From positions 1,048,219 through 1,112,218 of the forward strand of contig CAVPGR010000004.1 in assembly GCA_963704035.1 (NCBI GenBank): DNA of 64,000 nt. Reading direction: 5' to 3'. The position numbers and the translations under genes are program-made. This stretch comes from an uncultured Actinomycetes bacterium (lineage in GTDB: Bacteria > Actinomycetota > Acidimicrobiia > IMCC26256 > JAOSJL01). Positions within the stretch are counted from its first letter, which is position 1. Each line of letters starts with the position of its first letter. Positions 42,455 through 64,000 of the stretch are shown in pieces. The notes beneath the pieces were generated by a model, which saw only the letters and a list, made by a program, of their open reading frames with translations, was not told where the DNA came from and searched no databases.

Positions 42455-42501
42455 GACCCCGGACGGTAGTCGGCGCGAGACCCAGGACGGGTCGACTCGC
42501 G

Positions 42502-43335: not shown

Positions 43336-43427
43336 CCTTGCCTCCTCGGCGGTCGGCGGGAGTTGCCGCGAAGGTATTGGCCCACGGTGCCCCCTGCCAG
43401 CGTTGGACCTGCCCGAAGGCTCGCGGG

Positions 43428-47862: not shown

Positions 47863-47960
47863 GCGGGCTCTCGGCGCGGTCACGAGCGGACCGCGGCGTT
47901 CCCCGGGACGTGGGTGGCGCAGAAGCGATCGTACCTGCGCGTCGGCTGTACTCTCCGAGC

Positions 47961-49019
47961 GTGTTGCTGGTCTCCTCCGATCCGTGGTTCGTCGCTCACG
48001 ACACGGGTCGTGGCCATCCCGAACGGGCCGGGAGACTCGTGGCAGCGGCCCGGGGGATCGAGGCTGCCGGGCTCCGCGACGCCGTCGTCGAGCTGGAGCC
48101 CCGCGCGGCGACTTCGGCGGAGATGGCACGGGTCCACGATCCCACGTACCTGGCGGCCGTCGAGCGATTCTGCGAAGAGGGCGGCGGAATGGTCGATCCC
48201 GACACGGTCGCCTCCGTGGATTCCTGGACCGCCGCCACCCACGCGGCCGGAGCGGGGCTGGCGGCCGTCGACGTGTTGAGCGAAGGTCGGGGTGACGCGG
48301 CGTTCCTGGCCGTACGCCCACCCGGACACCACGCTTCTGCGTCGACTGCTCGCGGTTTCTGTCTCGTCAACAGCGCTGCCGTCGCGGCAGCGGCGCTGCG
48401 CGCAGCGGGTGAGCGCGTCGTGATCATCGACTGGGATGCCCACCACGGAAACGGAACGCAGGATCTCTTCTGGAACGATCCCGGAGTGCTCTACGTCTCC
48501 GCTCACGAGTTCCCACTGTTCCCTCACACGGGTCGGCTCGACGAGACCGGCGGGCCCGACGCGCTCGGCACGACCTGCAACATCCCGGTTCCCGCCGGTA
48601 CCACCGGCGACGTGTACCTCGCCGCCTTCGACGATGTGGTCGAGCCCCTGGTGGAGCGGTTCGCCCCCGACTGGACAGTCGTCTCCGCGGGTTTCGACGC
48701 TCACCGGCGCGACCCACTCACAGGCCTCGCCCTCTCTTCGGGAGACTTCGCCGCTCTTGCAGCGCGGGTCGCGACGTGGACGCCCGGTCGGATCGTGGCG
48801 TTCCTCGAAGGGGGATACGACGAGCAGGCGTTGGTCGGATCGATTGCCGTCACGGTGGCGGCGTTGCTTTCGGAGCAGCGTGTGATCGGAACGGGACAAG
48901 TCGGTGGCCGAGCGGAAGCCGAACCGCCTACGACCGGTGGGCCGGGACGAGATGTGGTCGAGGCCACCCGGCGGATCCACGCCACGATCCGTGAGGAATC
49001 TGAGAAGTTCGACCACTAA
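47961..49019 (+). CDS. histone-deacetylase-family (AcuC-like) deacetylase
   Basis: RPPGHHA, DWDAHHGNGTQ; GTG start at 47961. Confidence 0.85.
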   Translation: MLLVSSDPWFVAHDTGRGHPERAGRLVAAARGIEAAGLRDAVVELEPRAATSAEMARVHDPTYLAAVERFCEEGGGMVDPDTVASVDSWTAATHAAGAGLAAVDVLSEGRGDAAFLAVRPPGHHASASTARGFCLVNSAAVAAAALRAAGERVVIIDWDAHHGNGTQDLFWNDPGVLYVSAHEFPLFPHTGRLDETGGPDALGTTCNIPVPAGTTGDVYLAAFDDVVEPLVERFAPDWTVVSAGFDAHRRDPLTGLALSSGDFAALAARVATWTPGRIVAFLEGGYDEQALVGSIAVTVAALLSEQRVIGTGQVGGRAEAEPPTTGGPGRDVVEATRRIHATIREESEKFDH

Positions 49020-49102
49020 TGGTGAGATCCACGTCGTTCGGTTCAGGTCGGGTCGCCGGGCGTCGATAACTCCATCGGAAGCCCAGACCCCCCGGGGGAG
49101 AC

Positions 49103-50209
49103 GTGCTCGATCTCGAACAGCTGTTGCGGTTCTCCATCGAGGAGGACGCGTCCGACGTCCACCTGAAGGTCGGATCGCCGCCCTACGTGCGCATCGACGG
49201 ACACCTCGTGCCGACCGAGTTCGACACGATGACAGCCGCCGACACCGAGCGCGTGGCGTTCGCCATCATGCCTCCGACGCGCGCCGAGGAGTTCCACTCC
49301 ACGAACGAAGCCGACTTCGCGCACGCTGTCGCGGGCATGGGTCGGTTCCGCGTGAACGTGTTCCGCCAGCGCGGTTCTGTCGGGGTCGTGATGCGCCGTG
49401 TTCTCACCGGGATTCCGAGCCTTGCTGATCTGGGCATGCCGCCCGTCCTCGAACGCCTCGCCGGCGAACCGCGTGGCCTTGTTCTCGTGACCGGGCCGAC
49501 AGGGTCCGGAAAGACCACGACCCTCGGAGCGATGGTCGACCACATCAACGAGACGCAGCGACGACACATCGTGACGATCGAGGATCCGATCGAGGTACTC
49601 CACCCCGACAAACGCTCGATCGTCAACCAGCGCGAGATCGGCACGGACACCGAGGACTTCCACACCGCCCTGAAACGTGTGCTGCGCCAGGACCCCGACG
49701 TGATCCTCATCGGAGAGATGCGTGACCCCGAGACGGTTCACGCGGCGCTGTCGGCCGCTGAGACGGGCCACCTCGTGTTCTCGACGCTGCACACGATCGG
49801 CGCCAAGGAGTCGGTCGACCGCGTCATCGAGTTCTTCCCTCCGCACCAGCAACAGCAGGTGCGCCACACGCTCGCTGGTTCCCTGAGGGGCATCGTGAGC
49901 CAGCGCCTCATCGAGCGCCGCGATGCCGAGGGGCGCGTGCCCGCCGTGGAGGTGTGCGTGAACACGGGACGCGTGTTCGACAAGATCGTGAACGCCGGTC
50001 AGACCCACGAGATCGAGACGGTCATCGCCGACGGTGAGTACTACGGGATGCAGACCTTCGACCAGAGCATCCTCCAGCTCTTCAAGAACGAGCTCGTGTC
50101 GCTGCGCGACGCGCTCGGCATGGCGTCGCACCCCCACGACCTGCGCCTCGCCATCGAGCAGGCCGGCCTCATCTCCTCGTCGATGGACCGCGAGCGCACC
50201 AGCGCCTGA
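49103..50209 (+). CDS. pilT: PilT-type twitching-motility ATPase
   Basis: Walker A GPTGSGKTTTL, IVTIEDPIE, ILIGEMRD, GHLVFSTLHT. Confidence 0.9.
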   Translation: MLDLEQLLRFSIEEDASDVHLKVGSPPYVRIDGHLVPTEFDTMTAADTERVAFAIMPPTRAEEFHSTNEADFAHAVAGMGRFRVNVFRQRGSVGVVMRRVLTGIPSLADLGMPPVLERLAGEPRGLVLVTGPTGSGKTTTLGAMVDHINETQRRHIVTIEDPIEVLHPDKRSIVNQREIGTDTEDFHTALKRVLRQDPDVILIGEMRDPETVHAALSAAETGHLVFSTLHTIGAKESVDRVIEFFPPHQQQQVRHTLAGSLRGIVSQRLIERRDAEGRVPAVEVCVNTGRVFDKIVNAGQTHEIETVIADGEYYGMQTFDQSILQLFKNELVSLRDALGMASHPHDLRLAIEQAGLISSSMDRERTSA

Positions 50210-50303
50210 AGCAACGCTGGCGCTGTCGGACGCGACGACGCGCCGCCGACCGGAGAGGGAACCCATCCCCCGGCCGACGGCGCGTGCGCCGAATCGCAGA
50301 CGG

Positions 50304-51609
50304 CTAGCCGGAGCAACCGCCGATCTGGCAGCCCTTCCACGCGTGCCGCAGTTCACCCTTGGTGCGGTCGTAGTAGAGGACGTGGGGGTCCTGCGGACCC
50401 CAGTCGGTGTAGTCGCCGGGTCGCTGGATGAGGGCACCCGAGCTGTCGGAGCCCACGTCGTTCGTCGTGGCGCCGATGTTGCCGAGCTTCCCGTCGATCG
50501 TTTCGAACGACCAACCGGTCATCAACGAGGAGCCACCGTTGTGGACGCCGACACGCAGGTCGCGGTTCTTGGCGTCGTAGTAGAAGACGCGTAGTGGCTC
50601 GTCGCTGAACTCGCTGTACACGGCATCGGGAGCGGATCCGACATCAGACGAGATGCGCCCCGCGCCGCCGCCGGCACCGTCGAGTGTCGTCAGCACGAAG
50701 CCCGATCCGTTCCAGGTCGCGGAGCGGAGGTTGCCGTTCGTGGCGTCGTAGTAGAAGACCGCCGGGCCCGACGAGTGACCCGTTGCGGACAGGTCGGACC
50801 CGACGTCCCCGTCGATCCGACCACCTCCACCGCCGGCACCGTCCACGGTTCCGAACTCCCACGTCGCCGCCAGGATGTCGTAGAACCCGTAGCGGAGGTC
50901 GCCGTTCGTGGCGTCGTAGTAGAACACCCGCCAGTAGAAGTCGAACAGCTCGTCGATCACAGAGGCACTCTCTCCGACATCCGCGTCGATCCGACCGTCC
51001 GAGCCACCGGCACCGTCCAGGTTCTCGAAGACCCAGGCCCCTTGCGAATATGTCGCCAGTCGGAGGTTGCCGTTCTCCGAGTCGGGGTAGTAGACGTTCA
51101 GAACACCGATGGGGTTGTTCGGATTCGACGGATCCAGCATGAGCTGCCCCGCTGATCTGTTACTCGTGCCGACGTCAGCATCGACGCGACCGCCTGCGCC
51201 GCCGTCACCGTCGATCGTCTCGAAGTGCCAGACGCCACCCGCGAAGTAGCCCTGACGCAGGTTGCCGTTCGTGGCGTCGTAATAGAAGACGCGCGAATCT
51301 GGTGTCGTCGAGCATCCCGGTGACGCCCGAACCGACGTCGGCGTCGATCCGACCGTTCGAGCCACCGGCACCGTCGAGGACCTCGTGTTGCCAGCCGGCC
51401 ACCGTGTAGTACGCGTGGCGCAGGTTCCCGTTGTCGGCGTCGTAGTAGAAGGCGTGTGAGCCCACCATCGCCACGTCGGAGCCGACGTCCGCGGTCGTGC
51501 GACCACCTCCACCGCCGGCACCGTCCACGACCTCGAATTGCCAGCCGCAGCCGGTGGCGATCAGCGCCACGAGTGCGACACCGGCGGCCCATGTGCGAAT
51601 TCGTCTCAT
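50304..51609 (-). CDS. 7 x 54-aa repeat lipoprotein, paralog a (apparent frame break near 51295)
   Basis: MRRIRTWAAGVALVALIATGC lipobox followed by W.FE..DG / VFYYD / LRH.Y units; atypical end WKGCQIGGCSG. Confidence 0.7.
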
Positions 51610-51801
51610 CGTTACCCCCCTACTCCACAGCCGTGGAGGTGCTCAGGAGCAGGACCGCGGGGCGGCGCGACCTGCACGATTACCAGCGCTCTAGGCATTG
51701 GACGCACAGGTCACACGAAAGGTTCCCGAAAATCCCGAAGATCTCGAAATACTCGGATTTCGCCGGTCTCGAGCAGCGACGGCCGTTGTCGAGAAGCCCG
51801 C

Positions 51802-52359
51802 TCAGCGGCGGTCTCGCAGAAACGCCCGGAACCGGGCGACACGCGGGTACATCGTCGGTCCGCGCAACGCTACGACCTGCTCCTCGATGTACTCGGCATC
51901 CACGTCGGGGCGCACTGTCGCGACGGACTGGAGGTCGACCCAGTCCTGGGCCCGACCGAACGAGAGCTTGAACACGCACAGGTCTTCGGGCGAGAGAAAC
52001 GGGAGCTCCTTCTCCTGTGGTCCGAAGGGGTGGAGAACCCGCCGCCGTTCGGTTTCGGCGTAGCGTTTGTCCAGTGACGGAAAGACGTCGAGGGGGAACG
52101 GCTCGGTCTCGTGTTCGAACCGGACCCCGGCGACCGGGGGAGCCTTCTCGTCTCGAGGGGCTGGTTGGTAGCCGAGAGCCGCCAGCGCATCGGCGACGCG
52201 GTCCATCTCGGCGGGTGGGAGGAACACGTTGACGTCGATGTCGACGGTTCCCCGAGGCTCGGCCACGTAGCCGAGTGCCAGTGCGCCGCCGAAGGCGTGG
52301 CTGATACCTGCGCGGTCGAGATGATCGTGAACGGCGACGATGAGACCGACGAAGTCCAT
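51802..52359 (-). CDS. minimal nucleotidyltransferase-fold protein (toxin/antitoxin-like partner)
   Basis: GGALALGYVAEPRGTVDIDV fits the hG[GS]x9-13DxD pattern; TGATG junction with the upstream HTH gene. Confidence 0.6.
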   Translation of the reverse strand: MDFVGLIVAVHDHLDRAGISHAFGGALALGYVAEPRGTVDIDVNVFLPPAEMDRVADALAALGYQPAPRDEKAPPVAGVRFEHETEPFPLDVFPSLDKRYAETERRRVLHPFGPQEKELPFLSPEDLCVFKLSFGRAQDWVDLQSVATVRPDVDAEYIEEQVVALRGPTMYPRVARFRAFLRDRR

Positions 52360-52790
52360 CAGCGTGCCCGGACGATCGCTTCCGAGGCCTCGAGTGCAGC
52401 GGTGAGCATCCGGGCCCGTTCCGAAACCGGTGTGTTCCGGTCGACGCTCGGCGGCTCCGGCGGTGGGTCACCGCCCGAGGTGCCGGCGACAGCGGCTGCG
52501 TCGCTGACCGGAGGAGGAAACGCCAGGACGCGGTCGCCGGCTGCGGCAAGGAGCTCGAACCCACACGCCGACACCAGGCGTTGGAGGGTGTCCAGGCCCG
52601 GCGTTCGCCGGCCGTTCTCGATCGCCGAGATGTTCGCCTGCTTCACGCCCGAGATCTCGGCGAGCTGGGTCTGCGTGAGGCCCCGTTCGGCGCGGGCCCG
52701 TCGGATGATTGATTCGATCACCCGTCTAGTATATCGAAGTCGATAACCCCAGGTGTCGGTAGCGTGCGGTCGGAATCGGTCAACGGCCAC
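52359..52790 (-). CDS. XRE-family HTH protein (probable start GTG at 52721)
   Basis: IRRARAERGLTQTQLAEISGVKQANISAIENGRRTP. TATACT (minus, 52733-52728) lies 6 nt upstream of the GTG at 52721, suggesting a leaderless transcript. Confidence 0.7.
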   Translation of the reverse strand: MAVDRFRPHATDTWGYRLRYTRRVIESIIRRARAERGLTQTQLAEISGVKQANISAIENGRRTPGLDTLQRLVSACGFELLAAAGDRVLAFPPPVSDAAAVAGTSGGDPPPEPPSVDRNTPVSERARMLTAALEASEAIVRAR

Positions 52791-52850
52791 CTGGCGGCGG
52801 TGTGGGCGGAACCCTTCTCGAACAGCACCGTTCGTCAGCCGAAGCGTCCG

Positions 52851-54064
52851 TCAGCCGAACCAGCCGTGGCGCAGGTTGTGGGTGGGCGCTCCGCCCGCGT
52901 AGAAGACACGTGTGCGGTTTCCGTCGGCCAGAACTGACGACCACCGACCGGCCGGGCCGTGAATCTGGCCGTGGGGGCCGTTCTGATGGCCGTCGAGCGT
53001 CTCGAAGCCCCATCCCGACCCGGTGAAGTAGCTGTGGCGCAGGCGGTTGTTCCCTCCGTCCCAGTAGAACACCCGCAACCGTCCCGTCGAGACGATCGCG
53101 GAGCTCTCGCCCCGACCGTGCCCTGGATGCGGCCGTTGGGGCCATTCTGGTGGCCGTCGAGCGTTTCGAAACCCCAGCCGGATCCGGTGAAGTACGCGTG
53201 GCGGAGGTCGGAGTCGGGTGAGACGATGGCGTAGAACACGTGGGGGCGGCCGTTGTAGATCGTTGCGGAGTTGTCGACCCCGGCGTTGCCGAGCTTCCGG
53301 CCGTTGGGCCCGTTCATGTGGCCGTCGAGCGTCTCGAAGCCCCAGCCGGATCCGGTGAAGTATCCGTGACGGAGATCGAGCCCGTCGAGGTCGCGGTAGA
53401 AGACGTGCGGCAGTCCGTTGTAGACGACGACGGCTGTCGACCATCCCACGTCGTTCGTCGTGCGTCCGTTGGGGCCCCCGTCGCCGTCGAGGGTCTCGTA
53501 CACCCAGAAGAGCCCGTTGTAGTAGCCGTGGCGCAGCGACTCGTTCGTTCTGTCGTAGTAGAAGACGTGCGGGCGCCCGTTGTAGAGGATCGCGGTGATG
53601 TACTCACCGGTGTTGGCGACGAGCTCTCCGTGGGGCCCGACTCGGTGCCCGTCGAGCGTCTCGAACGCCCAGTACTGACCGTTGTAGTAGCCGTGTCGGA
53701 GTTCGACCGCGCCCGTGTCCCGGTAGAATACGTGGGGCCGGCCGTTGTAGACGATCGCCGAGACGTGCTCGCCGACATCACGCATGACCTCGCCGTGAGG
53801 GCCCGATCGGTGCCCGTCGAGGGTCTCGAACGCCCAGAACTGGCCGTTCCAGTAGCCGTGGCGCAGACGACCATCGGTGATGTCGTAGTAGAAGACGTGG
53901 GGCCGACCGTTGTAGACGACAGCGCTGCTGGCCGAACCCACCGCGTTGATCGACTGGCCGTGGGATCCGCCGTCGCCGTCGAGCGTCTGGAAGCTCCACT
54001 CGCAGCCGCTCATGGCCATGGCGGCAACAAGGGTTCCGATGACGAACCCACGGGCTGCGCTCAT
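52851..54064 (-). CDS. 7 x 54-aa repeat lipoprotein, paralog b (apparent frame break near 53110)
   Basis: MSAARGFVIGTLVAAMAMSGC lipobox; repeats; ends LRHGWFG. Confidence 0.7.
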
Positions 54065-54099
54065 CGGACCAACTTTCCGGCGGCCGGTCAGAGAACGCG

Positions 54100-54128
54100 A
54101 CGCTAGGACCCCAGCCACGAACCGTCAA
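54100..54128 (-). promoter_or_regulatory. conserved promoter cassette upstream of paralog b
   Basis: Minus strand TTGACG, 17 nt, TAGCGT. Confidence 0.55.
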
Positions 54129-54133
54129 CGGGT

Positions 54134-55327
54134 TCAGCCGAAGTAGGTGTGGCGAAGGCGAGCGTTACCGATGTCCCAGTAGAAGACGTGGGGGCGCCCG
54201 TTGTAGAGGACCGCCGCGTTGAACTGGCCCACAACGCCGTTGATGCGGCCGTTTGCTCCGCCGGCTCCGTCGAGAGTCTCGAACCCCCACGCGGAACCGT
54301 TGTAGTACGACTGACGGAGGTCCCCGTTCGTGTTGTCGTAGCTGAAGACCCGGGGACGTCCGTTGTAGAGGATCACCGCGTTCGACAGGCCGACGTCGGC
54401 GTTGATGCGGCCGTTTGCTCCGCCGGCTCCGTCGAGAGTTTCGAACCCCCACGCGGAACCGTTGTAGTAGGCGTGTCGCAGATTCCCGTTGTTGGCGTCG
54501 TAGTAGAACGCATGCGGCCGACCGTTGTAGAGAATCGCCGCGTTGTCGACGCCGACCGTGGCGTTGATACGTCCGTTCGGGCCACCCACGCCGTCGAGGG
54601 TCTCGAAGGCCCAGGTGGTGCCGTTGTAGTAGGCGTGACGCAGACTGTTGAGAGCATCGGCGTGGTAGAAGACGTGTGGTCGACCGTTGTAGAGGATCGT
54701 GGCCCCGTACTCGCCGACGTTGCTGACGACGCGTCCGTTGGGGCCCCCGTTGCCGTCGAGAATCTCGAACGCCCACGCGACGCCGTTGTAGTAGGCGTGT
54801 CGCAGGGTGTCGTCCGTGCTGTCGTAGTAGAAGACGTGCGGTCGGCCGTTGTAGAGGACCACCGAATTGTTCCAACCGACGTCGGTGTTCACGCGTCCGT
54901 TCGGGCCACCCATGCCATCGAGCGTCTCGAAGATCCAGGCCGAACCGTTGTAATAGGCGTGACGGAGACTGTCGAGACCGTCAGAGCGGTAGAAGACGTG
55001 TGGTCGGCCGTTGTAGAGGATCGCCGCTCCGTACTCACCGACGTCGGTGTTGACTCGGCCGTTGGGCCCGCCGTTGCCGTCGAGTGTTTCAAATGCCCAG
55101 AACGAGCCGTTGTAGTACGCGTGACGGAGCGTGCTGTCGGTGTTGTCCCAGTAGAAGATGTGGGGCCGGCCGTTGTAGAGGACTGCCGTGTTGTGGGAGC
55201 CGACGCTGTTGAATGTGCGCCCGTCGGCACCGCCCTGGCCGTCGAGCGTCTCGAAACTCCACTCGCACCCGGTGACGAGCAGAGCGGCAATCGCGAGCCC
55301 GATCAGGAGCTTGCGGGCCTTGCGCAT
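54134..55327 (-). CDS. 7 x 54-aa repeat lipoprotein, paralog c (intact)
   Basis: AGGAG-ATG at 55327; MRKARKLLIGLAIAALLVTGC; seven repeats; ends LRHTYFG. Confidence 0.8.
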   Translation of the reverse strand: MRKARKLLIGLAIAALLVTGCEWSFETLDGQGGADGRTFNSVGSHNTAVLYNGRPHIFYWDNTDSTLRHAYYNGSFWAFETLDGNGGPNGRVNTDVGEYGAAILYNGRPHVFYRSDGLDSLRHAYYNGSAWIFETLDGMGGPNGRVNTDVGWNNSVVLYNGRPHVFYYDSTDDTLRHAYYNGVAWAFEILDGNGGPNGRVVSNVGEYGATILYNGRPHVFYHADALNSLRHAYYNGTTWAFETLDGVGGPNGRINATVGVDNAAILYNGRPHAFYYDANNGNLRHAYYNGSAWGFETLDGAGGANGRINADVGLSNAVILYNGRPRVFSYDNTNGDLRQSYYNGSAWGFETLDGAGGANGRINGVVGQFNAAVLYNGRPHVFYWDIGNARLRHTYFG

Positions 55328-55358
55328 CGGGGCTCCTGGCGTGGCGTGCACCGCAGCA

Positions 55359-55387
55359 ACGCTACGGCCGGCGGTTCAGCGCGTCAA
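55359..55387 (-). promoter_or_regulatory. conserved promoter cassette upstream of paralog c
   Basis: Minus strand TTGACG, 17 nt, TAGCGT; AGGAG RBS downstream. Confidence 0.55.
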
Positions 55388-55392
55388 CGGGT

Positions 55393-56594
55393 TCAGCCGA
55401 AGTACGCGTGGCGAAGGTCGCGATTCGTTTCGCTCCAGTAGAAGACGTGGGGTTGGTTCTGGTACAGGACCACGGCGCTGTAGGTACCGACGAAGTCGGT
55501 CGTTCGGCCGTTCGGCCCGCCGTTACCGTCGAGGGTCTCGAAACCCCATGCGGCGCCGGTGTAGTACGCGTGGCGCAGGGAGTCATCGGAGACGTTCCAG
55601 GAGAACACGCGGGGGCGGCCGTTCTGGAGCACGGCCGAACTGAACGCGCCGACATTGTGGTCGGTGCGCCCGTTGGCGCCGCCGGCGCCGTCGAGGACTT
55701 CGAAGGCCCAGAACTGGCCGTTCCAGTATCCGTGGCGGAGATGACCCATCAACGCGTCGTAGTAGAACACGTGGGGTCGACCGCTGTAGAGCAGCACCGA
55801 GTTGTAGCGGCCGACGGTGTTGGTGGTGCGCCCGTGGGCGCCGCCGCTGCCGTCGAGGGTCTCGAACGCCCAGTACTGACCGTTGTAGTACGCGTGCCGA
55901 AGTGTCCCGCGTCGACGTTGTGGTGGAACACGTGTGGCCGTCCGTTGTAGATGACGACCGCGCTGTACCAGCCGACACCCGCGTTGATCCGACCGTTCGG
56001 ACCGCCAGCACCGTCGAGGGTCTCGAACGCCCAGAACTGACCGTTCCAGTATCCGTGGCGCAGGTCGACGGTCGTGGCGTCGTAGTAGAAGACGTGGGGG
56101 CGACCGTTGTACAGCGTCACAGTGTTGAAGACGCCGACGCTGTGTGTCGTTCTGCCGGCGCTACCACCGGCGCCGTCGAGGGTCTCGAAGACCCACGCCG
56201 TCCCGTTGTAGTAGCCGTGGCGGAGATCGTCGTTGGTCTCGTCGCGGTAGAAGACGTGGGGCCGACCGTTGTAGAGGACTGCCGCGCTGTCGGTTCCTAC
56301 GTCAGCGTTGATGCGGCCGGTGGGTCCACCGGCGCCGTCGAGGGTCTCGAAGACCCACGCCAACCCGTTGTAGTACGCGTGGCGAAGATTCCCTCCCGTC
56401 TGCGCGTAGTAGAAGACGTGGGGGCGCCCGTTGTAGAGGACCGTGGCGTTGTACGTACCGACGTTGGCGTCGATGCTGCCCGTGGGCCCGTTGTGGTCGC
56501 CGTCGAGTGTCTCGAAGCTCCAGACACAGCCGGTCGACAGCAGCGCCGTGGTCGCGACCACGACCAGCAGGTTCCTCGCAGAGCCTGTCGTCAT
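55393..56594 (-). CDS. 7 x 54-aa repeat lipoprotein, paralog d (apparent frame break near 55905)
   Basis: MTTGSARNLLVVVATTALLSTGC; starts 13 nt after the stop of paralog e. Confidence 0.7.
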
Positions 56595-56607
56595 CTCGGT
56601 GACACCG

Positions 56608-57819
56608 CTAGCCGAACCATGCGTGGCGCATGGACGTCGTGGAGAAGTCGGTGCGCAGGTAGAAGACGTAGATCCGACCGCCGGATGTGACCGCCGAGGC
56701 GTTTCCCCCTGCGAAGTCGTTCGTGTGGCCGGGGAGTGTGCTCGCCGATCCGTCGATGATCAGGAACTTCCACGTTCGCGCCGTCCAGTAGGCGCGACGC
56801 AGTAGACCCAGGTCGGTGTCCTGGTAGAAGACGTGAGGCTGGCTGCCGTAGACGGTCGCCGCCGCCCACTGGCCGACGCCGTTGTTGGTGTGCCCCGGGC
56901 GCGTGCTGCCGGTGCCGTCGAGCGTTTCGAAGCCCCACGCCGACCCACCGAACCAGGCGTGTCGGAGCGAGTCGTCGGACTGGTCGTAATAGAAAACGTG
57001 CGGTCGGCCGTTGTAGGGAACGACCGACGGGTAGCGGCCGACGTTGTGGGCCGTGCGTCCGTTGGCCCCGCCGTTTCCGTCGAGAGTTTCGAAGGCCCAC
57101 GCCGACCCACCGAACCAGGCGTGTCGGAGCGCGTTGTCAGTCTGATCGGCGTAGAAGACGTGCGGCCGTCCGTTGTAGAGGATCACCGACGGCTGGAGAC
57201 CGACCCCGTTTGTGGTGCGGCCGTTGGCTCCGCCGTTGCCGTCCAGGGTTTCGAAGGCCCAGGCCACACCGCTGTAGTAGGCGTGGCGCAGTGTGCGGTC
57301 GTCGGACTCCCAGTAGAAGATGTGGGGCCGGCCGTTGTAGAGCATCGACGCGCTGTAGGAACCGGCGTCGTTGGTCGTCCGTCCGTTGGGTCCGCCGTTG
57401 CCGTCGAGCGTTTCGAACGCCCAGAACACGCCGTTCCAGTAGGCATGTCGCAGCGAGTCGGCGTCCTCGTCGTGGTAGAAGACGTGGGGCCGTCCGTTGT
57501 AGAGGATGACCGACGGTTGCCAGCCGGTGTCGGCTTCGCTGTGCCCGGGTAGAACGCTGCCCGTGCCGTCGAGGGTCTCGAAGGCCCAGAACACGCCGTT
57601 CCAGTAGGCGTGACGCAGCGACTCGTTGTTGCTGTCCTTGTAGAAGACATGTGGGTTGCCGTTGTAGATGATCGGCGCGCTCTGGTAGCCGACGTTGTTG
57701 TTGGTGTGACCCGGTCTGGTGCTACCCGGACCGTCGAGCGTCTCGAGGTGCCACTCGCAGCCCGTGGCGAACAGAGCGGCGATCGCGACCCCGACCAGGA
57801 GTTTGCGGGCCTTGCGCAT
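56608..57819 (-). CDS. 7 x 54-aa repeat lipoprotein, paralog e (intact; PGH-type loops)
   Basis: MRKARKLLVGVAIAALFATGC; four blades carry GST.PGHT loops; ends MRHAWFG. Confidence 0.8.
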   Translation of the reverse strand: MRKARKLLVGVAIAALFATGCEWHLETLDGPGSTRPGHTNNNVGYQSAPIIYNGNPHVFYKDSNNESLRHAYWNGVFWAFETLDGTGSVLPGHSEADTGWQPSVILYNGRPHVFYHDEDADSLRHAYWNGVFWAFETLDGNGGPNGRTTNDAGSYSASMLYNGRPHIFYWESDDRTLRHAYYSGVAWAFETLDGNGGANGRTTNGVGLQPSVILYNGRPHVFYADQTDNALRHAWFGGSAWAFETLDGNGGANGRTAHNVGRYPSVVPYNGRPHVFYYDQSDDSLRHAWFGGSAWGFETLDGTGSTRPGHTNNGVGQWAAATVYGSQPHVFYQDTDLGLLRRAYWTARTWKFLIIDGSASTLPGHTNDFAGGNASAVTSGGRIYVFYLRTDFSTTSMRHAWFG

Positions 57820-57848
57820 CGCGGCTCCTGTCCCAAGAGTGGAATACC

Positions 57849-57877
57849 ACGCTACGACCGGCGGTTCGACGCGTCAA
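57849..57877 (-). promoter_or_regulatory. conserved promoter cassette upstream of paralog e
   Basis: Minus strand TTGACG, 17 nt, TAGCGT. Confidence 0.55.
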
Positions 57878-57882
57878 CGGGT

Positions 57883-59083
57883 TCAGCCGAAGTACGTGTG
57901 GCGGAGATCGCCGGCGTCGACGTTGCGGTAGAAGACGTGCGGTCGACCGTTGTACAGCACCACGCCGCTGTACTCGCCGACGTCGTTCGTGGTGCGTCCG
58001 TTCGGACCGCCGTTGCCGTCGAGGATCTCGAAGGCCCAGGCGACTCCGTTCCAGTAGCCGTGGCGGAGATGTCCCATCGCGCCGTTCTCGTAGAAGACGT
58101 GCGGTCGGCCGTTGTACAGGAGAGCATCCGGGTACCGGCCCACGCTTTGCGTCGTGCGTCCGTTTCCTCCGCCGTTGCCGTCGAGGATCTCGAAGGCCCA
58201 GGCGACTCCGTTCCAGTAGCCGTGGCGGAGCTCCTTTCCGTTGAAGTCGTAGTAGAAGACGTGTGGCCGGCCGTTGTAGAGGATCGCCGAGTTGTAGAAG
58301 CCCACGTTCGAGACGACCCGACCGTTTCCCCCGCCGTTTCCGTCGAGCGTCTCGAAGCCCCAGGCAACCCCGTTGCCGTAGGCGTGGCGTAGCCAGCCGT
58401 TGGTGGCGTGCCGGTAGAAGACGTGCATCTGACCGTTGTAGAGCACCACCGCGTTGTACTCGCCGAGATTGGTGTTCAGCCGCCCGTTCGGGCCACCGGC
58501 TCCGTCGAGTGCCTCGAAGAACCACGCTGCGCCGTTGTAGGTGGCGTGACGCAGGTCGCCGTTGTCGTCGTCGTGGTAGAAGACGTGCGGGCGTCCGTTG
58601 TAGATCACAGCGTCGGTGAAGTAGTCGACGTCGGCGTCGATCCGACCGTTGGACCCGCCCTGGCCGTCGAGGGTTTCGAACGCCCAGAACTGGCCGTTGT
58701 AGTAGCCGTGACGCAGGTCACCGCCGGTGAAGTCGCGGTAGAAGACGTGGGGTCGCCCGTTGTAGATCAGGACGGCGGGATACCGCCCGATGCTGGCGTC
58801 GAGCCGGCCGTTGGGTCTCGCCGTTGCCGTCGAGCGTTTCGAACGCCCAGAACTGACCGTTCCAGTAGGCGTGGCGCAGCTCACCGCCGCTTCCGGAGGC
58901 GTAGTAGAAGACATGCGGGCGGCCGTTGTAGAGGATCGCCGCGTTGTCCGACCCCGTCGTCGCTGTGGATTCCCCGTGGGGACCGTTGCGGTGGCCGTCG
59001 AGTGTCTCGAAGTGCCACTCGCACCCGGTCGCGAACAGTGCGGCGACGACTGCCCCGATGACGATCGCCCTGGCTCCCCTCAT
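57883..59083 (-). CDS. 7 x 54-aa repeat lipoprotein, paralog f (apparent frame break near 58813)
   Basis: AGGAAGGG-ATG at 59083, 17 nt after the stop of paralog g; MRGARAIVIGAVVAALFATGC. Confidence 0.7.
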
Positions 59084-59100
59084 TCTGCGCACCCTTCCTG

Positions 59101-60306
59101 TCAGCCGAACCAAGCATGGCGGAGGTTGCCGCCGCCGGTCTGCTCATAGGAGACCACGCGTGTTCGGGTTCCGTCGACCACGACGGCGTTGTACCGACCG
59201 GTGTTGCCGTCGATTCGCCCGTTGGGGCCGTTGCTCGTCCCGTCGAGTGTCTCGAAACCCCAGGCGCTTCCTGTGTAGTACGCGTGGCGAAGGTCTCCGT
59301 TGGTGAGGTCGTGGGAGAAGACGCGCAGCCGTCCACCCGACACGACGGCGGCGTTGTCGAGCCCCGTGGCAGCGGTTGTCCGGCCGTGGGGTCCACCGTT
59401 CCCGTCGAGCGTTTCGAATCCCCATGCGGAACCCGTGAAGTAGGCGTGGCGGAGGTCGCTCGAGTTCGTTCGGTAGAAGACGTGCGGTCGATCGCCGTAC
59501 AGCACGGCAGCATTGTCGTATCCTGTGCTCTCGTTGACGCGTCCGTTGGGTCCGTTCTGGTGTCCGTCGAGAATCTCGAAGGCCCACGTGGTGCCACTCC
59601 AGTAGCCGTGGCGGAGATCGAAGCTCGTGTTGTCCAGGTAGAAGACATGCGGTCGGCCGTTGTACATCACCACGGTGCTCGCGAATCCGACGTTGTGGGC
59701 CGTTCGTCCGTTGGAGCCCCCGGCGCCGTCGAGTGTCTCGAACACCCACTGGAGGTCGTTGTAGTAGCCGTGTCGGAGGTCGCCGTTCGTGTTGTCGCGG
59801 TAGAAGACGTGGGGACGGCCGTTGTGGAGCACCGACGTGCCGTTGTCGCCGACGTTGCCGAGGAGCTCACCGTTCGGTCCGTCGCGGTGTCCGTCGAGTT
59901 TCTCGAAGACCCAGGCGCTTCCGTTGTAGTAGCCGTGTCGGAGATCGAGCGCGCCGACATCGCTGTAGAAGACGTGGGGCCGACCGTTGTAGATGACAGC
60001 AGACGTGAACCGCCCCACGTCGCGTGTCGTGCGACCGTTCGAGCCACCGACGCCGTCGAGGGTCTGGAACGCCCAGAACTGGCCGTTCCAGTAGGCGTGG
60101 CGAAGGGCCTCGTCGGTGACGTCGTAGTAGAAGACGTGGGGCCGACCGTTGTAGAGCAGCGCGGCCTTCGGCAGCCACCCGACCTGGTGAGTGGTCCGGC
60201 CGCTGGGTCCACCATCGCCGTCGAGGGTCTCGAAGCTCCACTCACAGCCGGCGGCGACCAGGGCGGCGGCGGTGACGGCGATCAGGAGCGCCCGGATCCG
60301 TCGCAT
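59101..60306 (-). CDS. 7 x 54-aa repeat lipoprotein, paralog g (intact)
   Basis: MRRIRALLIAVTAAALVAAGC; ends LRHAWFG. Confidence 0.8.
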   Translation of the reverse strand: MRRIRALLIAVTAAALVAAGCEWSFETLDGDGGPSGRTTHQVGWLPKAALLYNGRPHVFYYDVTDEALRHAYWNGQFWAFQTLDGVGGSNGRTTRDVGRFTSAVIYNGRPHVFYSDVGALDLRHGYYNGSAWVFEKLDGHRDGPNGELLGNVGDNGTSVLHNGRPHVFYRDNTNGDLRHGYYNDLQWVFETLDGAGGSNGRTAHNVGFASTVVMYNGRPHVFYLDNTSFDLRHGYWSGTTWAFEILDGHQNGPNGRVNESTGYDNAAVLYGDRPHVFYRTNSSDLRHAYFTGSAWGFETLDGNGGPHGRTTAATGLDNAAVVSGGRLRVFSHDLTNGDLRHAYYTGSAWGFETLDGTSNGPNGRIDGNTGRYNAVVVDGTRTRVVSYEQTGGGNLRHAWFG

Positions 60307-60339
60307 CGCACCGGTCCCCGTGTTGCCGGTTATTCCGCG

Positions 60340-60368
60340 ACGCTACGACCGGGCTCGCAAGCCGTCAA
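60340..60368 (-). promoter_or_regulatory. conserved promoter cassette upstream of paralog g
   Basis: Minus strand TTGACG, 17 nt, TAGCGT. Confidence 0.55.
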
Positions 60369-60402
60369 CGGGCGCCCAGCGCCGACGCGGCTTCTGAGGG
60401 GT

Positions 60403-61620
60403 TCAGCCGAACCAGACGTGGCGGAGGGTGTTGGTGCCGGTGATGTCACGGGTGAAGACGTGGACGTCTCCACCGGTGACAACTACCGAGTTGTTGTAAC
60501 CCACGGCGTCGTTCGTCGAACCGGGTAGTCCGCCGACGCCGTCGATGGTTTCGAGGATCCATGCCGTTCCGTTCCAGTAGGCGCGCCGGAGCGTGTCGGG
60601 TACGGCTCCGCCGTGGAACACCTGGGGCTTGCCGCCGTAGATCGTTGCGGCGGCCTCGTAGCCCACGTTGTTGTTCGTGTGCCCGGGCAGGGTGCTTCCC
60701 GGGCCGTCGAGCGCCTCGAAGGCCCAAGCCATGCCGTTGTAGTAGGCGTGACGCAGCGCCTTGTTGGCGGCGTCCTGATAGAAGACGTGTGGGCGCGCGT
60801 TGTACAGAACGACTGCGGGATATTGGCCGACAGCGTTCACGGTGTGACCCGGCACGGTGCTTCCCGGGCCGTCGAGCGCCTCGAAGGCCCACGCCACGCC
60901 GTTCCAGTAGGCGTGACGCAACGAGGTGTCCGTGATGTCGTCATAGAACACATGTGGTCTGCCGTTGTAGACGACAGCGGCCGAGTGTGTGCCGACCTCG
61001 TTCAGCGTGTGACCGGGTCGGGTGCTTCCCGTGCCGTCGAGCGTCTCGAAGGCCCACGCGACGCCGTTGTAGTAGGCGTGGCGCAGCGATTTGTCTGTGT
61101 CGTCGTAGTAGAAGACGTGGGGCCGAGCGTTGTACAGAAGAGTCGTTGTCGCCTTGCCCACGTCGTGAGTCGTACGCCCACCGCCGCCCCCGGCGCCGTC
61201 GAGGACCTCGAACGCCCAGGCGACACCGTTCCAGTAGGCGTGGCGCAGAACATCGTCGGTTTCGTCGTCGTAGAAGATGTGCGGCCGGCCGTTGTACACC
61301 AGAGCCGCCGACGGGCGACCGACGTGGTTGTTGGTGTGGCCCGGCCGGGGGCTGGTGGAGCCGTCGAGCGTCTCGAAGGCCCAGGCGATGCCGTTCCAGT
61401 AGGCGTGGCGTAGTACCCAGTTGGTCCCGTTGGCGCGCCCCGCATAGAACACATGCGGGTTGCCGTTGTAGACGATCGCCGAGCTGAAGTAACCCTGGGA
61501 CTCGGTCGACGAACCGGGTCGGCCGCCGGGGCCGTCGAGCGTTTCGAAGTGCCAGTCGCATCCTGTGGCGAATAGAGCCATGAGCGCGACGCCGACGGTC
61601 AGTGTCCGCAGACGGCTCAT
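60403..61620 (-). CDS. 7 x 54-aa repeat lipoprotein, paralog h (intact; PGH-type loops)
   Basis: ATGA overlap with the stop of paralog i; MSRLRTLTVGVALMALFATGC; ends LRHVWFG. Confidence 0.8.
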   Translation of the reverse strand: MSRLRTLTVGVALMALFATGCDWHFETLDGPGGRPGSSTESQGYFSSAIVYNGNPHVFYAGRANGTNWVLRHAYWNGIAWAFETLDGSTSPRPGHTNNHVGRPSAALVYNGRPHIFYDDETDDVLRHAYWNGVAWAFEVLDGAGGGGGRTTHDVGKATTTLLYNARPHVFYYDDTDKSLRHAYYNGVAWAFETLDGTGSTRPGHTLNEVGTHSAAVVYNGRPHVFYDDITDTSLRHAYWNGVAWAFEALDGPGSTVPGHTVNAVGQYPAVVLYNARPHVFYQDAANKALRHAYYNGMAWAFEALDGPGSTLPGHTNNNVGYEAAATIYGGKPQVFHGGAVPDTLRRAYWNGTAWILETIDGVGGLPGSTNDAVGYNNSVVVTGGDVHVFTRDITGTNTLRHVWFG

Positions 61621-62819
61621 CCGAACCACGCGTGGCGCAGAGTGCCGTCGGTGAGGTTCTCGTAGAAGACGCGCGTCTTGGCGCCGTCCTTGATCGCAGC
61701 CGCGCTCACACCCACGGAGTCCGTCGTGCGCCCGGCTGGTCCGCCCGCGCCGTCGAGGATCTCGAACGACCAGATGCTGCCCGTGTACTGAGCCTCACGG
61801 AGCTCGTTGTTGACCTCGTCGTTGTTGAACACGTGGATCTTCGAACTGTCGACGACCACGGTGTTGTAGTTGCCGACGTTGCCCACGATCCGTCCGTTGG
61901 ATCCGCCGGCGCCGTCGAGTGTCTCGAAGGCCCAGGCGGCTCCGTTGTAGTACGCGTGCCGGAGCGTGGTGGTCGTGGCGTTGCGGTAGAAGACGTGTGG
62001 CCGCGAGCCGTAGATGACCGCTGCGTTGTCGAATCCGCTGCTCCCGAGCTCCCGACCGTCGGGCCCTCCGGCGCCGTCGAGTGTCTCGAACGCCCAGGCG
62101 ACGCCGTTCCAGTAGGCGTGACGCAGGAGGCCGGCGGCCCCGCCCGTGTCGGAGTGGTAGAAGACGTGCGGGCGGGAGTTGTAAATGATGACGCTGGAGG
62201 CTTCGCCCGCGTAGTCGTCGACGCGACCGTTGGGTCCTCCGGCGCCGTCGAGCGTCTCGAAGGCCCACGCGACACCGTTGTAGTAGGCGTGACGCAGGTT
62301 CCCGTCGCTCTCGTCGAGGTAGAAGACGTGGGGCCGACCGTTGTACAGGACGACTGAGGTGTTCGAACCCAGAATCGAGTTGATTCGCCCGCCGGCTCCG
62401 CCTGCCCCGTCGAGGGTCTCGAACGCCCACGCGACGCCGTTCCAGTAGGTGTGGCGGAGATTCCCGTCTGTCTGGTCCTGGTAGAAGACGTGGGGTCGGC
62501 TGTTGTAGAGAATCGCCGCGTTGTAGAGCCCCACGTCGTTCGTGGTTCTTCCGCCCGGCCCGCCGTTGCCGTCGAGAGTCTCGAACGCCCAGAACGAACC
62601 GTTCCAATAGGCGTGGCGAAGGGCGTTGTCGGTGGCGTCGTAGTAGAAGACGTGGGGCCCGCCGTTGTAGAGGATCGTGGCGTTGTACGTGCCCACGGTG
62701 TCGGTCGTGCGGCCGTTCGATCCGCCGTTGCCGTCGAGCGTCTCGAAGTGCCACGTGCACCCGGTGGCGAACAGCGCCGCGATCACGACGCCTGCGACGA
62801 TCGTTCTGGCTGCGCGCAC
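61617..62819 (-). CDS. 7 x 54-aa repeat lipoprotein, paralog i (intact)
   Basis: GGAGGG-GTG at 62819; RAARTIVAGVVIAALFATGC; ends LRHAWFG. Confidence 0.8.
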   Translation of the reverse strand: MRAARTIVAGVVIAALFATGCTWHFETLDGNGGSNGRTTDTVGTYNATILYNGGPHVFYYDATDNALRHAYWNGSFWAFETLDGNGGPGGRTTNDVGLYNAAILYNSRPHVFYQDQTDGNLRHTYWNGVAWAFETLDGAGGAGGRINSILGSNTSVVLYNGRPHVFYLDESDGNLRHAYYNGVAWAFETLDGAGGPNGRVDDYAGEASSVIIYNSRPHVFYHSDTGGAAGLLRHAYWNGVAWAFETLDGAGGPDGRELGSSGFDNAAVIYGSRPHVFYRNATTTTLRHAYYNGAAWAFETLDGAGGSNGRIVGNVGNYNTVVVDSSKIHVFNNDEVNNELREAQYTGSIWSFEILDGAGGPAGRTTDSVGVSAAAIKDGAKTRVFYENLTDGTLRHAWFG

Positions 62820-62848
62820 GAGTCCCTCCGAGACGGGGTCAGGGAAGG

Positions 62849-62877
62849 ACGCTACGCGGGCCGGCTTCGAGCGTCAA
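62849..62877 (-). promoter_or_regulatory. conserved promoter cassette upstream of paralog i
   Basis: Minus strand TTGACG, 17 nt, TAGCGT. Confidence 0.55.
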
Positions 62878-62895
62878 CGATTCCGCGGAACCGTG

Positions 62896-64000
62896 TCAGC
62901 CGAGCCAGCCGTGTCGCAGGTCGCCGGTCGTTCTGTCGTAGTAAAAGACGTGGGGAAGTCCACCCGAGACGACGGCCGCGTTGTACCAGCCCACGTCGTC
63001 GAGGGTGCGGCCGTGGTCGAATCCGTTGCCGTCGAGGTGTTCGAATACCCATCCGACCTCGGTGTAGCGGGCGCGTCGGAGGTTGCCCGCGGTGCGGTCG
63101 TAGTAGAAGACCTGGGGGCGTCCGCCCGAGAGGATCGCGGCGGTGTCCTCACCGACGTCGTGGCCGGTACGACCGTCGGGGCCGCCGTTTCCGTCGAGGA
63201 CCTCGAAGGCCCAGAACTGTCCGTTCCAGTATCCGTGGCGCAGCGTCCCGCCGAAGTCCTCGTCGTAGTAGAAGACGTGCGGACGTCCGCCGTAGAGCAC
63301 CACGGAGCTGAACGTGCCGACGTCGTTGCTGGTTCGTCCGTTCGGTCCGCCGTTGCCGTCGAGTGTCTCGAAGGCCCAGAACTGGCCGTTCCAGTATCCG
63401 TGGCGGAGGTTGCTCTCGGTGGTGTCGTAGTAGAAGACGTGGGGTCGACCGCCGTAGAGAACCACGGCGTTGTAGAAGCCGACGTTGTTGGGTGTGCGTC
63501 CGTTCGGGCCGCCGTTGCCGTCGAGTGTCTCGAACGCCCAGGCGACGCCGTTGTAGTAGGCGTGGCGCAGTGCACCCGCGGTGTCGTCGTAAAAGAAGAC
63601 GTGGGGTCGTCCGTTGTAGAGCACCGCCGCGTTGAACTCACCGACGTTGTTGGGTGTGCGTCCGTTGGGTCCGCCGTTGCCGTCGAGTGTCTCGAACGCC
63701 CAGGCGACACCGTTGTAGTAGGCGTGGCGCAGTGCACCGTCGGTCCCGTCGAAGTAGAAGACGTGAGGCCGTCCGCCGTAGAGCATCGCCGCGCTGTACC
63801 GACCCACGTCATGGAGCGTTCGCCCGTTGCCACCGCCGTTGCCGTCGAGCACGTCGAGGGCCCAGAACTGTCCGTTCCAGTATCCGTGGCGGAGATCCCC
63901 GTGCTCCCTGTCGTAGTAGAAGGCATGGGGTCGACCGTGGTAGACGACGGCCGCGTTGTACTCGCCGAGATCGGCGTCGACGCTCCCGTTCAGCCCGAAC
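62896..64000 (-). CDS. 7 x 54-aa repeat protein, paralog j (5' end outside window)
   Basis: The frame stays open to base 64000 with the same repeat signature; ends LRHGWLG. Confidence 0.75.
   Translation of the reverse strand, partial: FGLNGSVDADLGEYNAAVVYHGRPHAFYYDREHGDLRHGYWNGQFWALDVLDGNGGGNGRTLHDVGRYSAAMLYGGRPHVFYFDGTDGALRHAYYNGVAWAFETLDGNGGPNGRTPNNVGEFNAAVLYNGRPHVFFYDDTAGALRHAYYNGVAWAFETLDGNGGPNGRTPNNVGFYNAVVLYGGRPHVFYYDTTESNLRHGYWNGQFWAFETLDGNGGPNGRTSNDVGTFSSVVLYGGRPHVFYYDEDFGGTLRHGYWNGQFWAFEVLDGNGGPDGRTGHDVGEDTAAILSGGRPQVFYYDRTAGNLRRARYTEVGWVFEHLDGNGFDHGRTLDDVGWYNAAVVSGGLPHVFYYDRTTGDLRHGWLG

Follow-up and report, generated by a model that had tools for sequence, protein, structure and literature searches.

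The 64,000-nt stretch of DNA from an uncultured Acidimicrobiia bacterium analysed here (the window) carries, at positions 50304–64000 of its minus strand, an array of ten co-directional paralogous genes, a–j, each encoding a lipobox signal peptide and, after it, nothing but seven repeats of ~54 residues. Taken together, the evidence points to exported, membrane-anchored propellers that may bind glycans multivalently through repeated sites, with loops that would set the paralogs apart in ligand or partner; this is the reading that we favour, tentatively and with somewhat less than even confidence. The glycan-binding function is suggested by weak lectin homology together with domain fusions to peptidoglycan hydrolases. 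What is new is the combination of a lectin-like repeat propeller with a lipoprotein, multi-paralog format, drawn from a large family for which no model exists.

A preliminary description of this DNA, made from the sequence without database searches, had reported ten paralogous minus-strand genes built of seven ~54-aa repeats, and the open reading frames (ORFs), the motif spacing and Tandem Repeats Finder all bear this out. Specifically, the motif W-x-F-E-x-L-D-G recurs seven times in each of genes b–j at a spacing of 162–171 nt (54–57 aa), and Tandem Repeats Finder returns periods of 162, 165 and 324 nt over the array. The GC content at third codon positions (GC3) of the chosen frames is 0.80–0.88 in a genome of 66–68% GC, and the long ORFs running across the array on the opposite strand lack the GC3 bias of real genes. 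The consensus of 62 aligned blades from b–j, WaFEtLDGxGGpnGrtxxxvGxxxaavlYnGRPHVFYxdxtxxxLRHaYxnGxa (mean column identity 59%), matches the repeat signature that had been written down earlier. That signature was presented as uniform across the paralogs, which does not hold for paralog a, a divergent subtype with 38–46% identity to the other paralogs, blades of variable length (Table 1), no YNGRPH motif and a Cys-rich tail at its end.

The seven-bladed propeller proposed in the preliminary description is upheld by structure prediction. With a 48-sequence alignment as input, AlphaFold2 (AF2) models paralog c as a closed seven-bladed propeller of 28 strands, with a predicted local distance difference test score (pLDDT) of 95.7 and a predicted template modelling score (pTM) of 0.91, and it gives the same seven-blade architecture for the intact ortholog of a, P0079 (pLDDT 92.0, pTM 0.90). 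In the model of c, the signal peptide is a helix, and the N-terminal strand (residues 23–29) completes blade 7 together with the last three C-terminal strands. Each repeat is predicted to run from strand 1 (W.FE.LD) through a 12-residue loop into strand 2 (VG...LY) and an NG turn, and then from strand 3 (RPHVFY.D) through a 4-residue turn into strand 4 (LRHAYY) and an NGxx turn. As assigned from the predicted secondary structure rather than from coordinates, the long loop and the strand 3–4 turn would lie on one face of the propeller, with the two NG turns and the beginning of strand 1 on the other.

Conservation within this framework falls into two classes. Every blade of every paralog retains W1, F3, E4, L6, D7 and G8, the loop Gly, VG, V-F and L-R without change. 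Y-N-G-R-P-H, on the other hand, is near-invariant in blades 1–5 and relaxed in blades 6 and 7, where 4/9 and 3/9 genes, respectively, retain the Tyr, 3/9 and 2/9 the Asn, and 3/9 and 5/9 the RPH His. The His of LRH is likewise near-invariant in blades 1–5, and is present in four of nine genes in blade 6 and in all nine in blade 7. Residues that two blades can dispense with are unlikely to be required for folding, and YNGRPH may for this reason be read as a repeated functional site; because it is kept in blades 1–5 and degenerate in blades 6 and 7, about five putative binding sites would be intact per protein. Between paralogs, the strand 3–4 turn and the long loop, which share one face, have the highest entropy (2.17 and 1.34 bits, respectively); values fall to 0.80 and 1.06 bits in the anchor-side turns and are also lower in strands 1, 3 and 4. 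The paralogs would therefore vary chiefly in the loops opposite the anchor, such that they probably differ in ligand or partner.

All nine visible N-termini fit a PROSITE PS51257-type lipobox rule ([LIVMFWSTAG](2)-[LIVMFYSTAGCQ]-[AGS]-C, with the Cys at 15–35, a basic n-region and an uncharged hydrophobic h-region), in agreement with the lipobox signal peptides described earlier. The Cys lies at residue 21–23, as in MRKARKLLIGLAIAALLVTGC and MRGARAIVIGAVVAALFATGC. A type II (lipobox) signal peptide on each precursor would direct export, lipidation (diacylglyceryl modification by Lgt) and cleavage by Lsp, so that the mature protein would begin at the acylated Cys; that the array proteins are exported and lipidated is thus a prediction from their sequences. 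In the array proteins, the first-strand Trp is located at Cys+2, as it is in 18 of the 26 short homologs that bear a lipobox. Only one residue past the acylated Cys, the chain would enter the first β-strand of the single closed propeller, and since no linker separates the two, the propeller would rest immediately on the outer leaflet of the cytoplasmic membrane, below the wall, as judged from sequence and the AF2 model. The topology of the predicted secondary structure would place the lipidated Cys on the NG-turn face.

The propeller family is large. Scanning 1.84 billion cluster representatives (50% clustering) in full with HMMER gave 7493 proteins at E ≤ 1e-3, of which 3920 reach E ≤ 1e-10 and 700 reach E ≤ 1e-30. 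In line with the earlier failure to place the repeat in a named family, these proteins are covered by no model of Pfam or NCBIfam, NCBIfam returning nothing meaningful; literature searches retrieved no paper on this propeller family. Close relatives are ~400-aa proteins from metagenome-assembled genomes of Acidimicrobiia and other Actinomycetota, and distant relatives are multidomain proteins. The best 120 matches include CHAP (6), Peptidase_M23 (3), PIG-L (2), a cutinase domain (1) and Big_3_5 (10), and 55 multidomain representatives include CHAP (6), Amidase_2 (3) and M23 (2), along with S8 proteases, PKD and Ig-like domains. BNR_4 and DUF7253 were rejected as fusion partners, being 25–50-residue fragments that match the repeat itself. 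In the Saccharimonadales protein P0043, a CHAP domain at residues 41–125 is followed by seven blades, and the catalytic domain is N-terminal to the propeller in all the fusions checked, namely CHAP, M23 and Amidase_2 (domain order checked in one protein of each type) and PIG-L. By analogy, the propeller in these fusions appears to take the position of a wall-targeting or binding module. The CHAP, Amidase_2 and M23 fusions thereby lend independent support to the glycan or cell-wall binding that the preliminary description had suggested, a reasonable but putative function.

A second line of evidence is the relationship to lectins. The earlier remark that the repeat recalls RSL/AAL blades holds in that the likeness is real, and falls short in that it is weak. 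The Fungal_lectin model PF07938 scores 26.6 bits on paralog e, a borderline value against the cut-off of 25.3, and 15.8 bits on the homolog P0019, and gives no match for c, g, h and i. When the family profile is run against PDB, single-chain RSL is retrieved at E = 3e-6, with RSL W31 and W36 aligned to the conserved Y/W and W1. Additionally, DUF346 (PF03984), annotated as a PLL-like seven-blade lectin repeat in LectomeXplore (PMC7778903), scores 16.8 bits on i, the best window protein, which is below the 22-bit cut-off, and 29.5 bits, above it, on the relatives P0010 and P0091; on these profile scores, the wider propeller family would border on DUF346. Taken together, we conclude that the blades probably fall within the broad RSL/AAL/PLL-like lectin-blade lineage as distant homologs, and that the propeller family lies outside the RSL, AAL and PLL families as currently defined.

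Structural comparison is less discriminating. A Foldseek search with the model of c, a check that the preliminary description had proposed, does return propellers that include CV39L and RSL, at E-values of ~1e-10 that are shared with other generic propellers (the EPTP domain of LGI1 and sialidases). CV39L (6gxs) aligns at a template modelling score of 0.63–0.65 normalised to the query (TMq) and 0.69–0.70 normalised to the target (TMt), with 17–19% identity, a root-mean-square deviation (rmsd) of 4.4–4.8 Å and E ~1e-9, a fit no better than that of the unrelated LGI1 EPTP propeller (TMq 0.62). With the a-type model, RSL is the top match. A BFVD viral fold search gave generic propellers (e.g. phage G gp427) and nothing specific, and a PDB search with a single sequence gave noise only. 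Against the anti-phage defence models of PADLOC, c gave no match and h a 24-residue DpdH fragment; the PADLOC and PHROGs matches of the propellers, all short fragments, were set aside.

Because Foldseek also lists sialidases, GH32 and GH43, and Pfam places BNR_4 fragments on relatives, the propellers could be enzymes, that is, sialidase, GH43 or BNR-type glycosidases or lyases acting on envelope glycans. We regard this as very improbable. The template modelling scores to sialidases, GH32 and GH43 are only 0.35–0.5, with rmsd mostly ~7–18 Å, and the BNR_4 matches are ~40-residue fragments of the repeat itself. Moreover, conservation is equal in every blade, unlike that around an asymmetric central active site, and in the checked fusions, with the catalytic domain at the N-terminus, the propeller comes after it, where a binding module would be expected.

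We propose, then, that the array propellers may bind a repeating envelope or environmental glycan multivalently, through sites that recur from blade to blade, the candidate ligands being peptidoglycan strands, a secondary wall polysaccharide or a lipid-linked glycan. Several observations weigh against this proposal. Lectin homology is weak overall: in the HMMER alignment, RSL Arg17 is replaced by the Phe of VFY and Glu28 by the His of LRH, so that of the fucose-binding site the Arg/Glu dyad is lost and the aromatic positions alone are retained, and fucose specificity can therefore not be deduced; hhalign against one RSL sequence gives a probability of 3%; a single-blade profile built from the window blades finds nothing in PDB; and the best Foldseek E-values are shared with the protein-binding LGI1 EPTP and with sialidases, as described above. 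YNGRPH itself is confined to the Acidimicrobiia lipoprotein clade, and the hydrolase-fused relatives carry L-[QH]-VFYYD at that place. The conserved polar residues could also be a purely structural network, by analogy with the Asp-His-Ser/Thr-Trp tetrad of WD40 propellers. Further fusion partners are proteases, PKD/Ig, phosphatase and lyase-like domains, and in view of this variety the module may be a general adhesion or scaffold domain. Finally, the array has no linked genes for glycan metabolism or transport within the window.

Some of the same observations would suit a protein–protein scaffold or sensor, in which anchored propellers dock envelope enzymes or sense foreign proteins via their variable top face, in the manner of the lipoprotein propellers BamB and LpqB or of EsrA, the surface WD40 sensor of oral Actinobacteria. 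LGI1 EPTP, a protein-binding seven-blade propeller, is among the top Foldseek PDB matches, variability is concentrated on one face, the RSL sugar-binding dyad is absent, and diversifying propeller sensors against Saccharibacteria epibionts, of the WD40 class, have been reported in Actinobacteria (PMC13622651). Nevertheless, we consider this explanation unlikely. The sequence links go to RSL, AAL and DUF346 lectin repeats rather than to WD40, BamB or LpqB, and recurrent fusion to peptidoglycan hydrolases suits a wall-targeting module better. In addition, near-identical conserved residues in 5–7 blades suggest repeated identical sites, which would suit a polymeric ligand, and there are no signalling partner genes inside the array.

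Alternatively, the surface propellers might serve nutrient capture, binding environmental poly- or oligosaccharides for uptake or degradation, with each paralog suited to a substrate. The lectin-like blades and the retention of distinct paralog subtypes across genomes are consistent with this, as is an ABC transporter that adjoins the two copies in the related genome GCA_041394025.1. That transporter, however, is an ABC-2/DrrA-type exporter pair (L007 13953–15763) and not a solute-binding-protein importer, and it is absent from the window, where neither glycoside hydrolases nor importers lie linked with the array. Without a linker after the Cys, moreover, a propeller under the wall would be poorly placed for polymer capture, and we hold a nutritional role to be quite unlikely. 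In GCA_041394025.1 the two propeller genes also have as companions small genes of 130 and 138 aa (L007 9547–9939 and 11702–12118) without a Pfam match.

Comparison with related genomes indicates how the array arose. GyrB places the source within Acidimicrobiia and is 99% identical to GyrB of the genome FR_2 (GCA_027494115.1), which aligns with window positions 40260–51732 at 93.8% nucleotide identity; the syntenic site in FR_2 was established via P0079. This site holds the ortholog of a only, with astE/rimK on one side and pilT, deacetylase, GNAT, DUF6049 and murJ genes on the other. Synteny ends at 51732, ~120 nt upstream of a and ~70 nt downstream of a nucleotidyltransferase gene, and beyond this point the window holds a nucleotidyltransferase/helix-turn-helix (HTH) gene pair and then the array, the rest of which looks like a lineage-specific insertion or expansion, since collinearity stops here. 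A survey of copy number, which the preliminary description had recommended, gives one gene at the syntenic site in FR_2, two in GCA_041394025.1 and at least 12 in the source, and the array would have arisen through gene duplication at this conserved locus near the origin, which is bounded by astE/rimK and pilT. A separate FR_2 contig, L001 (JAOSJL010000006.1, 13147 bp), consists of paralogs only, with 42 blade motifs and frequent frame changes.

The preliminary description had also called the system diversifying, and this is sustained only in part. Paralogs b–j are old, being 47–62% identical to one another, and blade identity within a gene (0.557) is no higher than that between blades of the same index across genes (0.556), so there is no sign of recent amplification or homogenisation. 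Three loop subtypes, GGPNGR (c, d, f, i, j), GSTRPGH (e, h) and His-rich DGHxxGP (b, g), have orthologous counterparts elsewhere, and members are closer to partners in other genomes than to their own array: h is 67% identical to P0011, from another Acidimicrobiia genome, g 70% to P0005 and c 70% to P0004. Paralog a does evolve faster than its neighbours. It is 84–85% identical to its FR_2 ortholog, compared with 95–99.7% for five neighbouring genes, and the Nei–Gojobori method gives a nonsynonymous rate (dN) of 0.105, 5–100 times that of the neighbours, a synonymous rate (dS) of 0.30 and thus a dN/dS of 0.35 (neighbours, 0.005–0.23), with positive selection not detected. dN/dS between paralogs was dropped, as synonymous sites are saturated at 47–62% amino-acid identity.

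These data bear on the proposal that the array is a battery of variable surface antigens or decoys, comparable to WiSP of Tropheryma whipplei, with a recombining cassette reservoir that evades phages or epibionts. The WisP C-terminal region model PF07860 does match paralog h at 29.8 bits; copy number varies from 1 to 2 to at least 12 among close relatives; the dN of a is elevated; two assemblies, identical elsewhere over most of the length in which they align, differ by ~20% in paralog d; the L001 array of FR_2 is not collinear with that of the window, its proteins being at most 77% identical to the products of the window genes; and a toxin–antitoxin-like pair is located at the synteny break. 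Against this, the paralogs have diverged to the level given above with no evident recent conversion, dN/dS is below 1, and the divergence of d falls within a noisy stretch of a low-quality assembly. The PF07860 match, moreover, is a fragment of 31 residues, which covers only profile positions 40–70 of 130 and is summed over repeats, so the proteins do not qualify as WiSP members, and a linkerless lipoprotein beneath the wall would be a poor phage target. An antigen or decoy role is therefore improbable in our estimate.

Assembly quality also has to be considered. In this assembly, four array genes carry one frameshift each, near 51292 in a, near 53110 in b, near 55900 in d and at 58818 in f, all of which the preliminary description had missed. 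A second assembly from the same population, a 12.8-kb ENA contig (L006, ERZ25039603), is identical to the window across most of e–i and most of b and j (0–3 mismatches per 250 nt). In L006, f is intact (399 aa), the window lesion being a single additional A; the b frameshift, adjoined by a GGGG run, is common to both. L006 bears different indels of its own in c, e and i, from which it follows that both assemblies are indel-prone. The ortholog of a is intact in FR_2 (P0079, 435 aa, 85% identity). Additionally, the essential gyrA is frameshifted at ~22921–22926 in this assembly, which indicates assembly indel errors. The repeat consensus is fully kept downstream of every frameshift, and the stop-to-stop frames that hold a, b and f pass the GC3 screen (0.81–0.82); the split ORFs of d are absent from that list. 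Probably not all four frameshifts are real, and at least some would be assembly errors, given that L006 has an intact f, FR_2 an intact ortholog of a, and gyrA a similar lesion. In the body of d (55250–56500 versus L006 9100–10700), nucleotide divergence is ~20% with many gaps and both flanks are identical, which could be genuine, as a second allele or cassette within the population, or could stem from a poor consensus in L006; apart from d, L006 is divergent or gap-rich over 63250–63750, 55250–55500 and 54000–54250. An interpretation with genuine frameshifts, in which the array is largely made up of decaying, non-functional pseudogenes, would account for interruptions in four of ten genes, for the shared lesion in b and for the internal frame changes of the L001 genes, and is highly doubtful in the face of the intact copies of f and a, the lesion in gyrA, the differing indels of L006 and the preserved consensus and GC3.

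The coordinates of the array genes and of the inserted pair are collected in Table 1.

Table 1. Propeller genes of the array and the two genes inserted between a and b.
Feature	Position	Strand	Description
Paralog a	50304..51609	-	Conceptual product 435 aa; lipobox IATGC; 7 blades of 50–70 aa; frameshift ~51292/51293
AbiEii-like nucleotidyltransferase, 185 aa	51802..52359	-	Pfam PF08843, 22.7 bits; not a propeller gene
XRE-type HTH protein, 143 aa	52359..52790	-	Pfam HTH_3, E = 5e-16
Paralog b	52851..54064	-	Lipobox AMSGC; 7 blades; His-rich DGHxxGP loops; frameshift ~53108–53111 beside GGGG run
Paralog c	54134..55327	-	Intact, 397 aa; lipobox LVTGC, Cys21; 7 blades; identical to P0001
Paralog d	55393..56594	-	Lipobox LSTGC, Cys23; 7 blades; frameshift ~55899–55902 beside TTT run
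Paralog e	56608..57819	-	Intact, 403 aa; PGH-loop subtype, GSTRPGH loops in blades 1, 2, 6, 7
Paralog f	57883..59083	-	7 blades; frameshift from extra A at 58818
Paralog g	59101..60306	-	Intact, 401 aa; lipobox VAAGC; exact match of P0008 from ENA contig L006
Paralog h	60403..61620	-	Intact, 405 aa; PGH-loop subtype; start overlaps stop of i by 4 nt
Paralog i	61617..62819	-	Intact, 400 aa; GTG start; lipobox FATGC
Paralog j	62896..64000	-	367 residues visible: blades 2–7 and most of blade 1; N-terminus past window end

The array departs from its first description in several details. It is not a run of consecutive genes, as the nucleotidyltransferase/HTH pair (51802–52790) splits it between a and b, and paralog b ends at 52851 rather than at 52835. 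Placing the array directly beside the origin core was an overstatement: it is near the origin, beginning ~19 kb from dnaA (29449–31113), and the genes in between are yidC, jag, parA, parB, trxB, a kinase/sigma gene, murJ, DUF6049, GNAT, deacetylase and pilT-like genes. The count of at least ten genes was sound, since the array runs on past 64000 by at least two further paralogs, for a total of at least 12 genes, as viewed only via the noisy assembly L006; P0002 (398 aa) and P0009 (405 aa) map outside the window on the same 1.75-Mb contig. The genes of the inserted pair overlap by 1 nt, and they are therefore probably a toxin–antitoxin-like pair; PADLOC gave no match for the nucleotidyltransferase and only generic HTH models for the HTH protein. 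Gaps between propeller genes range from -4 to 96 nt, and those flanking the pair are 60 nt (b to the HTH gene) and 192 nt (the nucleotidyltransferase gene to a). Given such short gaps, and since a promoter/terminator scan of the array found no signal above shuffled expectation, the array likely forms one or a few operons.

The array is transcribed toward the origin, on the lagging-strand template, where the plus-strand GC skew is +0.06 to +0.08; it would be head-on to replication, as would murJ, the DUF6049 gene and the sigma/kinase gene. The last of these (40769–42688, minus strand) joins a Ser/Thr protein kinase and extracytoplasmic function (ECF)-type sigma-70 domains (regions 2 and 4) in one 639-codon open frame. 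In FR_2, kinase and sigma are two overlapping genes in different frames (L009 19152–20222 and 20212–20799), and the single frame of the window is either a real fusion or another indel artefact. In gyrA (21071–24569, minus strand), a 349-aa intein occupies residues 128–476 (~23142–24188) at the active-site ...RY|C... position. The window GyrB (634 aa) is intein-free and the window GyrA intein-bearing, and GyrB of GCA_041394025.1 (P0238) is a 1072-aa protein with the intein-type domains PF14528 and PF14890; intein content therefore varies among these close relatives.

The propeller repeat thus defines a large family without a dedicated Pfam or NCBIfam model or a characterised member. If it is wall- or glycan-binding, it would represent a new class of cell-wall-targeting module, which would aid the annotation of lytic enzymes in Saccharibacteria and other uncultured bacteria, and it would explain a strongly expanded lipoprotein family in Acidimicrobiia, which are environmentally abundant and poorly studied. 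If it is merely a generic scaffold, the array would be an ordinary paralog expansion. In either case, copy numbers of 1, 2 and at least 12 at one conserved locus offer a clean natural system for surface-protein family expansion. A broader reading, which we think rather unlikely, would unite these strands in an unrecognised envelope-glycan module, present as lipoprotein paralogs in actinobacteria and as a targeting domain of lytic enzymes (CHAP, M23, amidase) in Saccharibacteria and other bacteria; the array would then be a fast-turnover receptor or decoy battery that reads or masks the wall polymer of its own cell when epibionts, phages or lytic competitors attack.

Among known systems, the fucose lectins RSL, BambL and AAL (PF07938; PDB 4csd, 7e7u) resemble the array proteins in being multivalent repeat propellers with four-stranded blades and in the motif order ...hVhY...G.h.(E/H)..(W/Y).(D/N)G..W.... 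RSL, however, has six blades of ~45 aa, built as a trimer of two-blade units or as a six-blade chain, whereas the array proteins have seven of ~54 aa in one chain, and the RSL/AAL proteins are soluble lectins whereas the array proteins are predicted lipoproteins. Each fucose site of the RSL/AAL type combines an Arg/Glu pair with Trp residues (R17, E28, W31/W36 and W76/W81 in RSL). The PLL family (PLL, PLL2, PLL3, PHL and CV39L; ‘PropLec7A’) shares the single-chain, seven-bladed architecture of ~40 kDa that is predicted for the array proteins and differs in blade length and motifs (YNGRPH, W.FE.LDG), and the PDB sequence-profile searches retrieved neither PLL nor CV39L. PLL-family binding sites, for L-fucose or O-methylated sugars, lie between blades (PMC6943638), and these lectins have been characterised as soluble recombinant proteins of insect pathogens, with no lipid anchor mentioned.

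WiSP proteins are large and multidomain; the WiSP match covers about one blade junction, whereas the array consists of 400-aa predicted lipoprotein propellers, among which no sign of cassette exchange was detected. Both are paralogous surface protein families in Actinobacteria, the surface location being predicted for the array, and WiSP of Tropheryma whipplei is described as strain-variable in content (PMC2078596). BamB and LpqB are, like the predicted array proteins, lipid-anchored envelope propellers, and no sequence relationship to them was detected with Pfam or NCBIfam. They are single-copy scaffolds of a defined machine, not multi-gene arrays. Finally, the wall-binding modules of hydrolases, SH3b, LysM, CW_binding_1 and PG_binding_1, are small domains of a fold unrelated to that of the 380-aa propeller. 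Relatives of the propeller share with these modules the usual C-terminal wall-targeting position, whereas in the array the propeller stands alone as a predicted lipoprotein.

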